From Escherichia coli (GTDB lineage: Bacteria; Pseudomonadota; Gammaproteobacteria; Enterobacterales; Enterobacteriaceae), in the NCBI RefSeq assembly GCF_003334255.1, contig NZ_QOWU01000220.1: 586 nucleotides of DNA; one strand, given 5' to 3'. The stretch's first letter is position 1; each line of letters opens with the position of its first letter. Below, piece by piece: positions 7-553 of this stretch. A program made the position numbers and the translations under genes. Below the pieces are notes generated by a model that ran no database searches, was not told the DNA's origin, and saw only the letters and a program-made list of their open reading frames with translations.

Positions 7-46
7 TCAAAAACAACGGGGCGACCATCAAACAGCGTCGCCCCGT
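7..46 (-). terminator. Rho-independent (intrinsic) terminator for the minus-strand gene: perfect 10-bp GC-rich stem, 11-nt loop, followed by a U-tract
   Basis: Plus-strand 16-25 ACGGGGCGAC is the exact reverse complement of 37-46 GTCGCCCCGT (8 of 10 stem pairs are G:C), separated by 11 nt (26-36). On the minus strand the stem is immediately followed by TGTTTTTGA (plus coordinates 15..7). It lies about 51 nt downstream of the CDS stop at 98-100. On the plus strand the hairpin is followed by gttcatgctg, which is not U-rich, so it looks unidirectional. Confidence 0.55.
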
Positions 47-97: not shown

Positions 98-553
98 TCA
101 TCGTTTTATCGCAATCCTCAGTTGTTGTTTCAGCGCGGATGCCAGTTCTCCGGGCAGGCGTTCACGCCGGATACGGTCAACATTCTCATCAAACGCCTGT
201 TTCAGTGGGGCCGCCATCGGGATTTTCACCACATCAATAGGGTAACGGTTTTTCCCGGCCACACGCTGCATGACATGCCAGCGACCGTTTTTTAATCGCT
301 GAATGAATGCCCGCTGATACCGATGCTGACCGGCTTTAAGTATGCTGTTCGGACGACGGCCCAGCATCCTGATCCCCAGCTTAATCACTGGAAGATCACC
401 GCGGTTAACGATAATTTTTGCGTTCGGATTTCTGACCGTCGCCCTTTTCAGTCTGGACCGTTCCTTAACCAGTTTCCGGCGTACCTTTGTCTCCCGGGCA
501 ACCTGTGATGAAGACTGATTAATCGCCGTTGTGGCCACGCGGTTAATCGTCAT
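98..553 (-). CDS. Hypothetical highly basic (Arg/Lys-rich) protein, probable nucleic-acid-binding; 151 aa from ATG at 553 to TGA at 98-100; true start may lie upstream of the window
   Basis: Longest ORF in the window, covering about 78% of it. My codon-by-codon reverse-complement translation reproduces the supplied 151-aa protein. It has 24 Arg and 13 Lys versus 9 Asp/Glu, no Cys, and non-repetitive, protein-like composition. A strong hairpin plus U-tract lies about 50 nt downstream of the stop on the same strand. No family assigned; recognition is from memory only and no search was possible. No obvious Shine-Dalgarno sequence precedes the ATG at 551-553 (upstream minus-strand sequence ccggcggcttcagcaATG) and the frame is open through 554-586. 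Confidence 0.6.
   Translation of the reverse strand: MTINRVATTAINQSSSQVARETKVRRKLVKERSRLKRATVRNPNAKIIVNRGDLPVIKLGIRMLGRRPNSILKAGQHRYQRAFIQRLKNGRWHVMQRVAGKNRYPIDVVKIPMAAPLKQAFDENVDRIRRERLPGELASALKQQLRIAIKR

Follow-up and report, generated by a model that had tools for sequence, protein, structure and literature searches.

A hairpin and U-run within gene U of a lambda-like Escherichia coli prophage as a possible latent intragenic terminator

What is the role, if any, of a perfect palindrome that runs into a tract of T residues inside a stretch of prophage DNA? The sequence analysed here, a 586-nt stretch of Escherichia coli DNA (the window), raises this question because the original prediction read the same letters as an intrinsic terminator with an overlong loop, as an operator for a dimeric protein, or as a recombination or attachment core. 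The elements on which these readings were built are present as described. The two 10-nt arms, at 16–25 (ACGGGGCGAC) and 37–46 (GTCGCCCCGT), are 100% complementary with 11 nt between them, and the minus strand reads through the stem and immediately into TGTTTTTGA (window 15 to 7).

The minus strand of the window is coding along its whole length. The 5′ part of gene U, which encodes the tail terminator (tail-tube terminator) protein of the lambda gpU family, occupies positions 1–101 on this strand, with its ATG at 101–99 and its left end open. Gene Z, which encodes the tail completion protein of the lambda gpZ family, occupies positions 98–586 on the same strand, with its TGA stop at 100–98, and is truncated at the right end of the window. 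The U frame translates as MKHTDIRAAVLDALEQHEHGATLFDGRPVVFDE and matches PHROG 37 (phrog_37), tail terminator, with an E value of 5e-10 on 33 aa; this profile match, together with the annotated gene order Z-U-V, places the protein in the gpU family. A full-length homologue is 80% identical to lambda U, and the RefSeq name of the protein is 'phage minor tail U family protein'. The Z frame matches PHROG 27 (phrog_27), tail completion protein, with an E value of 4e-55. The stop of Z and the start of U overlap as ATGA (window 98–101, minus strand), an arrangement typical of translational coupling that lambda, N15, phi80 and most relatives share; the annotated Z of VT1-Sakai and Stx2_14744 ends ~10 nt ahead of the U start. 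At the nucleotide level, the window is 74% identical to the Z-U region of phage lambda, 96% identical to Escherichia phage PhiR12_1, where the genes are annotated Z and U, and 100% identical to prophage DNA of E. coli strains that include ATCC 25922, where the copy lies at NZ_CP009072.1 3967722–3968307. Of 5426 complete E. coli genomes, 1561 contain a match that spans 80% or more of the window.

Read on the minus strand, each part of the palindrome is made of U codons. The 5′ arm ACGGGGCGAC (37–46) comes from (C)AC-GGG-GCG-AC(G), His-Gly-Ala-Thr of gpU; the 11-nt loop GCUGUUUGAUG (26–36) from (AC)G-CTG-TTT-GAT-G(GT); the 3′ arm GUCGCCCCGU (16–25) from (G)GT-CGC-CCC-GT(T), the Gly-Arg-Pro-Val at the D-G-R-P motif; and the U-run UGUUUUUGA (7–15), directly 3′ of the stem, from (GT)T-GTT-TTT-GA(C), Val-Val-Phe-Asp. 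The hairpin thereby takes up U codons 19–29 (H-G-A-T-L-F-D-G-R-P-V) and the U-run codons 29–32 (Val-Val-Phe-Asp). It begins ~55 nt past the U start codon and roughly 300 nt ahead of the U stop, and V, G, T, H and the remaining tail genes (through J) follow downstream on the same strand, placing the site mid-way in the late operon. Because the hairpin lies inside U with V, G, T and H still to be transcribed, it cannot mark the end of a transcription unit.

Folding of the minus-strand transcript, suggested as a check by the original prediction, returned a stable structure. A 60-mer containing the hairpin has a folding energy of −25.5 kcal/mol (z −3.65), a stability not reached in any of 200 dinucleotide shuffles, and the hairpin on its own accounts for −20.2 kcal/mol. 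The plus-strand RNA of the palindrome also folds (z −4.72), but the letters that follow it are GUGUUCAUG, with no U-run, and we rejected an antisense terminator. When the window was dinucleotide-shuffled 3000 times, 0.57% of the shuffles contained a perfect inverted repeat with arms of 10 bp or more and a 3–15 nt spacer. The palindrome is unusual within one 586-nt window and ordinary at the scale of a phage genome, since roughly half of shuffled lambda late regions yield a hairpin this stable: hairpins of −18.5 kcal/mol or lower, the stability of lambda's own copy, appeared in ~52% of block-wise dinucleotide shuffles of the lambda 19-kb late region.

The proposal of an intrinsic terminator holds for the anatomy of the element and fails for its context. 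On the minus strand, a hairpin and a U-run are arranged as in an intrinsic terminator; the site nevertheless lies inside the U open reading frame with tail genes downstream. The stem has 10 perfect pairs, 8 of them G-C, at −20.2 kcal/mol, and falls within the GC-rich stems of about 5–14 bp expected of such terminators. The U-rich tract UUGUUUUUG follows the 9-bp core of the stem, with a tail score of 3.5. The loop, already flagged as long, is 11 nt in both the window and lambda, beyond the 3–8 nt of a short terminator loop. The position, at U codons 19–32, is neither the end of a transcription unit nor an untranslated leader. Terminator prediction, also suggested beforehand, gave a divided answer: the scan misses the window site only because its loops are limited to 3–8 nt, and it calls the homologue in L437 (16 pairs and a 3-nt loop, a loop length shared with L419), one member of a Pantoea-associated clade.

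A graded picture emerged from a discriminant of the d'Aubenton-Carafa form, which combines hairpin energy with the U-tail and whose values serve as a heuristic only. The window element scores +8.3, the lambda element, with its weaker tail CUGUUUUUG, scores −22.6 and lies below threshold, the homologous element of the Pantoea type scores +33 to +42, and an unrelated intergenic terminator with the same arms scores +19.6. By this heuristic score the U hairpin is the top sense-strand hit in five Pantoea-type contigs carrying 10–14 kb of late-gene DNA, and it is also the top hit in 6.6 kb around the window-type U. Judged by its sequence, the window element is a borderline intrinsic terminator, and its relatives range from sub-threshold to textbook. 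Elsewhere in the window, the scan calls a small terminator-like site at 563–575 on the plus strand, antisense to Z, that reads CGCCGGAATGGCG and then TTTTTACGAA; such sites are at chance level here (1 found against 0.7 expected).

If the element acts at all, it may do so as the sense RNA. Stem variants in which C has changed to T opposite G leave a G·U pair in the sense RNA, would mispair as A·C on the antisense strand and make the DNA asymmetric. The variants CCT, GGT/GCC and CGT/GTG all keep RNA pairing through G·U and make the DNA arms asymmetric. These G·U-keeping variants, together with a U-run on the sense strand only, point to the U mRNA as the relevant molecule, if there is one. The G·U bias toward sense RNA is weak evidence, because such transitions are the commonest mutations anyway.

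Our preferred reading, to which we give roughly an even chance, is that the sense-strand RNA hairpin and U-run in U of this lambda-like E. coli prophage constitute a latent intragenic intrinsic terminator or a functional RNA hairpin. Its arms would be supplied by the Gly-Ala-Thr and Gly-Arg-Pro codons and its U-run by the Val-Val-Phe codons. It is known that, with Q, polymerase from PR′ passes tR′ and goes on to transcribe the late genes (PMC7547250), that closely trailing ribosomes stop terminator hairpins from forming, and that E. coli intragenic terminators become active once coupling is lost (PMC5021804). During lytic growth the late operon would be transcribed by Q-modified, terminator-resistant polymerase and translated at the same time, and the hairpin would be read through so that V to J are expressed; this step is drawn from established lambda biology, and the anatomy and the coding context were observed directly. 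Polymerase release would be expected only on transcripts made by unmodified polymerase without a close ribosome, for example from stray transcription in a lysogen. Alternatively, the hairpin could serve as a 3′-exonuclease barrier in decaying late mRNA. Our literature search found nothing that describes a hairpin in lambda U or maps 3′ ends in lambda gene U or the late genes.

A latent terminator in U would resemble, in several respects, the masked intragenic terminators of rsxC and narY in E. coli (PMC5021804). Both kinds of element pair a GC-rich hairpin with a U-run inside an open reading frame of a polycistronic operon, and both are expected to be active only when the ribosome lags behind polymerase. 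The U hairpin differs in lying in a phage late operon under Q antitermination and in having an unusually long loop of 11 nt. Like lambda tR′, it lies on the PR′ late transcript, and read-through is needed for tail gene expression. Unlike the U hairpin, tR′ is intergenic, follows right after the promoter and is a defined regulatory target of Q; the U hairpin is found ~12 kb further down and within coding sequence. A terminator-like hairpin inside a translated gene is a known and common kind of element, and this instance in U is newly noted.

The strongest rival follows from the way in which the palindrome is encoded. The 3′ arm GGT-CGC-CCC specifies the Gly-Arg-Pro of D-G-R-P, a motif that is nearly invariant in the U family, and its reverse complement, GGG-GCG-ACC, specifies Gly-Ala-Thr, exactly the peptide that U encodes seven codons earlier, in a variable stretch or loop of gpU. 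The palindrome exists because the Gly-Ala-Thr codons (GGG GCG ACN) are the reverse complement of the Gly-Arg-Pro codons (GGT CGC CCC). The whole structure could then be a by-product of coding that originated by chance from reverse-complementary codons, is kept by descent, by the constraint on D-G-R-P and by codon preference, and has no function as RNA or DNA structure. We regard this as a serious competitor whose chances fall somewhat short of even, and the near invariance of the motif encoded by the second arm speaks in its favor. Each third codon position pairs with a first position of the opposite arm, and the stem therefore needs specific synonymous choices. From the peptide and lambda late-gene codon usage, we calculated that a perfect 10-bp Watson-Crick stem in the same register has a probability of 3e-4 given the window peptide, or 4e-3 with G·U allowed, and of 3e-3, 2e-3 and 7e-3 given the lambda, Pantoea-type and Stx2_14744 peptides. 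The stem thus calls for improbable codon choices in each clade (3e-4 to 7e-3), which argues against a mere by-product, and these choices include the minority codons GGG (23% of Gly in lambda late genes) and CCC (16% of Pro). Compared with synonymous-codon shuffles, the 60-nt segment with the hairpin has a z-score of −4.1 in the window type (0 of 150 shuffles as stable), −4.1 in the Pantoea type, −3.3 in the Stx1 type and −3.1 in lambda.

Comparison among U lineages yields evidence on both sides of this question. Lambda has the same hairpin, with a 9-bp stem (CGGGGCGAC/GTCGCCCCG) and an 11-nt loop (J02459 8608–8636), and phage 21 and the Stx1 phages also carry it. Window-type and lambda U differ synonymously at 49% of the codons that specify the same amino acid, and the longest stretch without a synonymous change, 12 codons, is the hairpin, with replacements in the loop and in both flanks; a stem that is the longest synonymously unchanged run between lineages so diverged is not what a coding by-product would lead one to expect. 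The stem is almost invariant across 80 lambda-type loci, where a pair is broken by GGT in one allele and the outermost pair is missing from another. The palindrome is likewise intact in 77 of 80 window-type loci, which were found by protein similarity alone, and the sole variable stem site there is a G·U change, CCC to CCT, in 3 loci (also seen in phage 21). This single variable site in 20 nt compares with ~2.2 expected from the gene-wide rate and is not significantly fewer, so that stem polymorphism is not depleted, in agreement with a coding by-product.

More distant relatives retain the pairing in two further forms. In the Pantoea-associated clade, where the protein is only ~55% identical, a stem in the same register has 11 pairs and a 9-nt loop. 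Genome, viral and metagenome collections yielded 12 occurrences of the Pantoea type (pattern hits, 8 from viral contigs and 4 from metagenomes, some of them in the same phage); the search that widened this sample, a wobble-free pattern against viral contigs and metagenomes, returned these 12 hits only, and they are closely related. In the 12 occurrences, the pair between base 1 of the Thr/Ala codon and base 3 of the Gly codon is A-U, G·U or G-C and never A·C, and the absence of the mismatched combination from this series also counts against a by-product. The Stx2_14744 type keeps 11 pairs through a change of GGG/CCC to CGG/CCG plus two G·U pairs. Pairs inside the stem are mismatched in its sister, the Sakai type, and an A·C occurs in one relative. 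In most other lineages, among them N15, phi80, mEp043, mEp460/cdtI, Fels-1, Rahnella, Kosakonia and Citrobacter, the stem is broken in this register.

Across the family as a whole, the by-product reading fares better. Synonymous-shuffle z-scores were calculated for 44 U lineages in 11 windows of 60 nt each, and no family-wide excess of structure was seen at the hairpin position, where z averages −0.59 for 44 distinct U genes, a value in line with the rest of the gene. The lineages that stand out are the window type (−4.1), the Pantoea type (−4.1), Stx1 (−3.3), lambda (−3.1), Gifsy-2 (−2.6, with a different stem) and Superficieibacter (−2.3). When 68 distinct segments of 48 nt are aligned without gaps, pairing is seen in 65.8% of cells, compared with 62.3% after redistribution of the 3′ partners and 35–51% in slid registers of the same alignment. 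Stem complementarity across the family comes largely from the amino-acid columns, with a small sequence-specific surplus. A universal RNA element of U genes is ruled out by the z-scores of the 44 lineages and by the mostly compositional pairing of the 68 sequences. A coding by-product is furthermore in keeping with a shuffled-partner control that still pairs at 62%, with a stem that was lost or never present in most lineages, with the appearance of comparable hairpins in about half of late regions after shuffling (a chance rate of roughly one per late region), and with the frequency of predicted intragenic terminators in E. coli genes, 49 of 255 (PMC5021804). Taken with the codon choices, conservation in three clades suggests weak selection for pairing; the selection signal for the stem is suggestive, restricted to clades and not decisive.

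Several observations on individual U genes were made in the course of this comparison. Gifsy-2-type U (L011, codons about 19–37; L420–L433) is without the lambda-register stem and has a different perfect 10-bp stem, CTCCACCACG/CGTGGTGGAG, with a 20-nt loop around the same F-F-D-G-R-P codons (z −2.6). That stem is identical in 13 loci and missing from an 80%-identical relative (L432). One viral-contig U allele (L096–L215) has GTTGTTTTGAC for GTTGTTTTTGAC, which makes the U-run one T shorter and would shift the U frame; the allele either reflects a homopolymer sequencing error or is a pseudogene. Three contigs of 380, 481 and 288 bp (L225, L251 and L252) from assemblies of marine bacteria (Amphritea pacifica, Ancylomarina longa and Algoriphagus lutimaris) match lambda 8405–9198 at 99.8–100% identity and are almost certainly lambda DNA contamination. 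The E. coli window-type U gene is also present on a Collinsella MAG contig (L217), which was probably mis-binned.

A bolder form of the terminator reading, which we hold only tentatively and think unlikely on balance, is that several lambdoid lineages (window-type, lambda, Pantoea-type and perhaps Stx2_14744-type) actively maintain a conditional terminator in U through codon choice and compensatory changes. Such an element might act as a checkpoint that passes only Q-modified or ribosome-coupled polymerase and cuts off stray transcripts in the lysogen, or it might be a decay barrier that sets the ratio of head to tail mRNA. If so, a regulatory RNA signal would be overprinted on a structural gene of the best-studied phage and kept there by rare codons and compensatory changes. 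An element that terminates unmodified polymerase would be an internal safety signal in a lambda-type late operon, and would bear on the silencing of structural genes in prophages and on the need for Q antitermination beyond tR′. If the hairpin is instead a by-product of coding, it carries a caution, namely that GC-rich palindromes and T-runs arise within genes from reverse-complementary sets of codons. A check of the reading frame is needed before such palindromes are annotated as terminators or operators.

We also considered that the hairpin works after transcription. As a barrier in the mRNA, it would block 3′-to-5′ exonucleases after endonucleolytic cleavage, and the upstream head-gene and Z message would outlive the downstream tail messages, as with REP hairpins. 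The stem is stable on the sense strand (−18.5 to −25.8 kcal/mol), and in lambda (L411) stable hairpins are found in the short gaps just past the abundant head genes D (6097–6118) and E (7163–7180). Furthermore, the lambda late region (1–19000) contains 8 sense-strand hairpins of −15 kcal/mol or lower compared with 2.6 in shuffles, a ~3-fold excess that may come from elements stabilising the mRNA or from a biased null model. Like REP-type and intercistronic stabilising hairpins, the U hairpin is a stable sense-strand stem-loop in a long operon that could stall 3′ exonucleases. Unlike them, it is not intercistronic, is present in a single copy per phage and overlaps translated codons. An intragenic site would be unwound by each translating ribosome, and the high-copy tail tube gene V, which lies downstream, would gain nothing from it; we consider this role improbable.

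Least probable, and in our judgement very unlikely, is a site that acts as DNA, either as the operator of a dimeric protein or as a core for site-specific recombination or attachment: its 10-bp half-sites are 21 bp apart centre to centre, or two helical turns, and satellites are known to integrate into lambdoid late genes (PMC10111431), but the palindrome lies inside a structural gene without a promoter-like site nearby, is single-copy in each phage, and has natural variants that lose DNA symmetry and retain RNA pairing. The operator or dual role put forward at the outset finds no promoter-like site on either strand of the window, no further copy, and no conservation of half-site symmetry among homologues. 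The suggested recombination or attachment core fares no better, as U is uninterrupted at this position in all ~400 loci. In the same report, the late-gene attachment sites seen for helper-embedded satellites lie in A, B, C, E, V, T and L, and no U-family site (Phage_tail_U) is mentioned in the text and six supplementary files covered here (PMC10111431).

A search for further copies, which had been recommended for a possible repeat element, turned that idea down. The window holds no second copy of the palindrome, and 120 of 120 viral contigs with the exact pattern have one site each, 117 of these in U. A dispersed REP-like repeat is ruled out by this distribution of one site per contig, all in U except for three unrelated intergenic terminators. 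Those three matches outside U are an ordinary intergenic terminator, which likewise gives no support to a DNA-level site. Other candidate classes were also rejected. The known lambda small RNAs LPR1, LPR2 and 6S map elsewhere; Rfam 15 contains no match, the best overlap being RF01676, whose 13.9 bits (E = 7) lie below its gathering score of 40; and sequence inspection found no slippery heptamer upstream of the stem, which argues against a stimulator of programmed frameshifting.

The look-alike intergenic terminator (L096 8359–8389, L110 55–85 and L151 55–85) has the same arms, ACGGGGCGAC/GTCGCCCCGT, the same 11-nt spacing and a T-run. It differs from the U hairpin in being intergenic, in its unrelated flanks and in a spacer that pairs internally (ATC-GAAA-GAT). 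The resemblance is a chance convergence of GC-rich terminator stems and not homology. At the edge of prophage contigs, the 3′ half of a tRNA-Gln-like sequence (...TCGAATCCTCGTACCCCAGCCA) immediately precedes the look-alike. ARAGORN detected no complete tRNA there, and the 3′ half, the only part present, is probably an att-site duplicate.

Two other repeats occur in the window near the 5′ end of Z. One is a 90% inverted repeat at 517–548, GATTAATCGC/GCGGTTAATC, with a 12-nt spacer, and the other is a direct repeat, TTAATCGCCGTTG/TTAATCGTCATTG. Both lie within the codons of the N-terminal peptide MTINRVATTAINQ.
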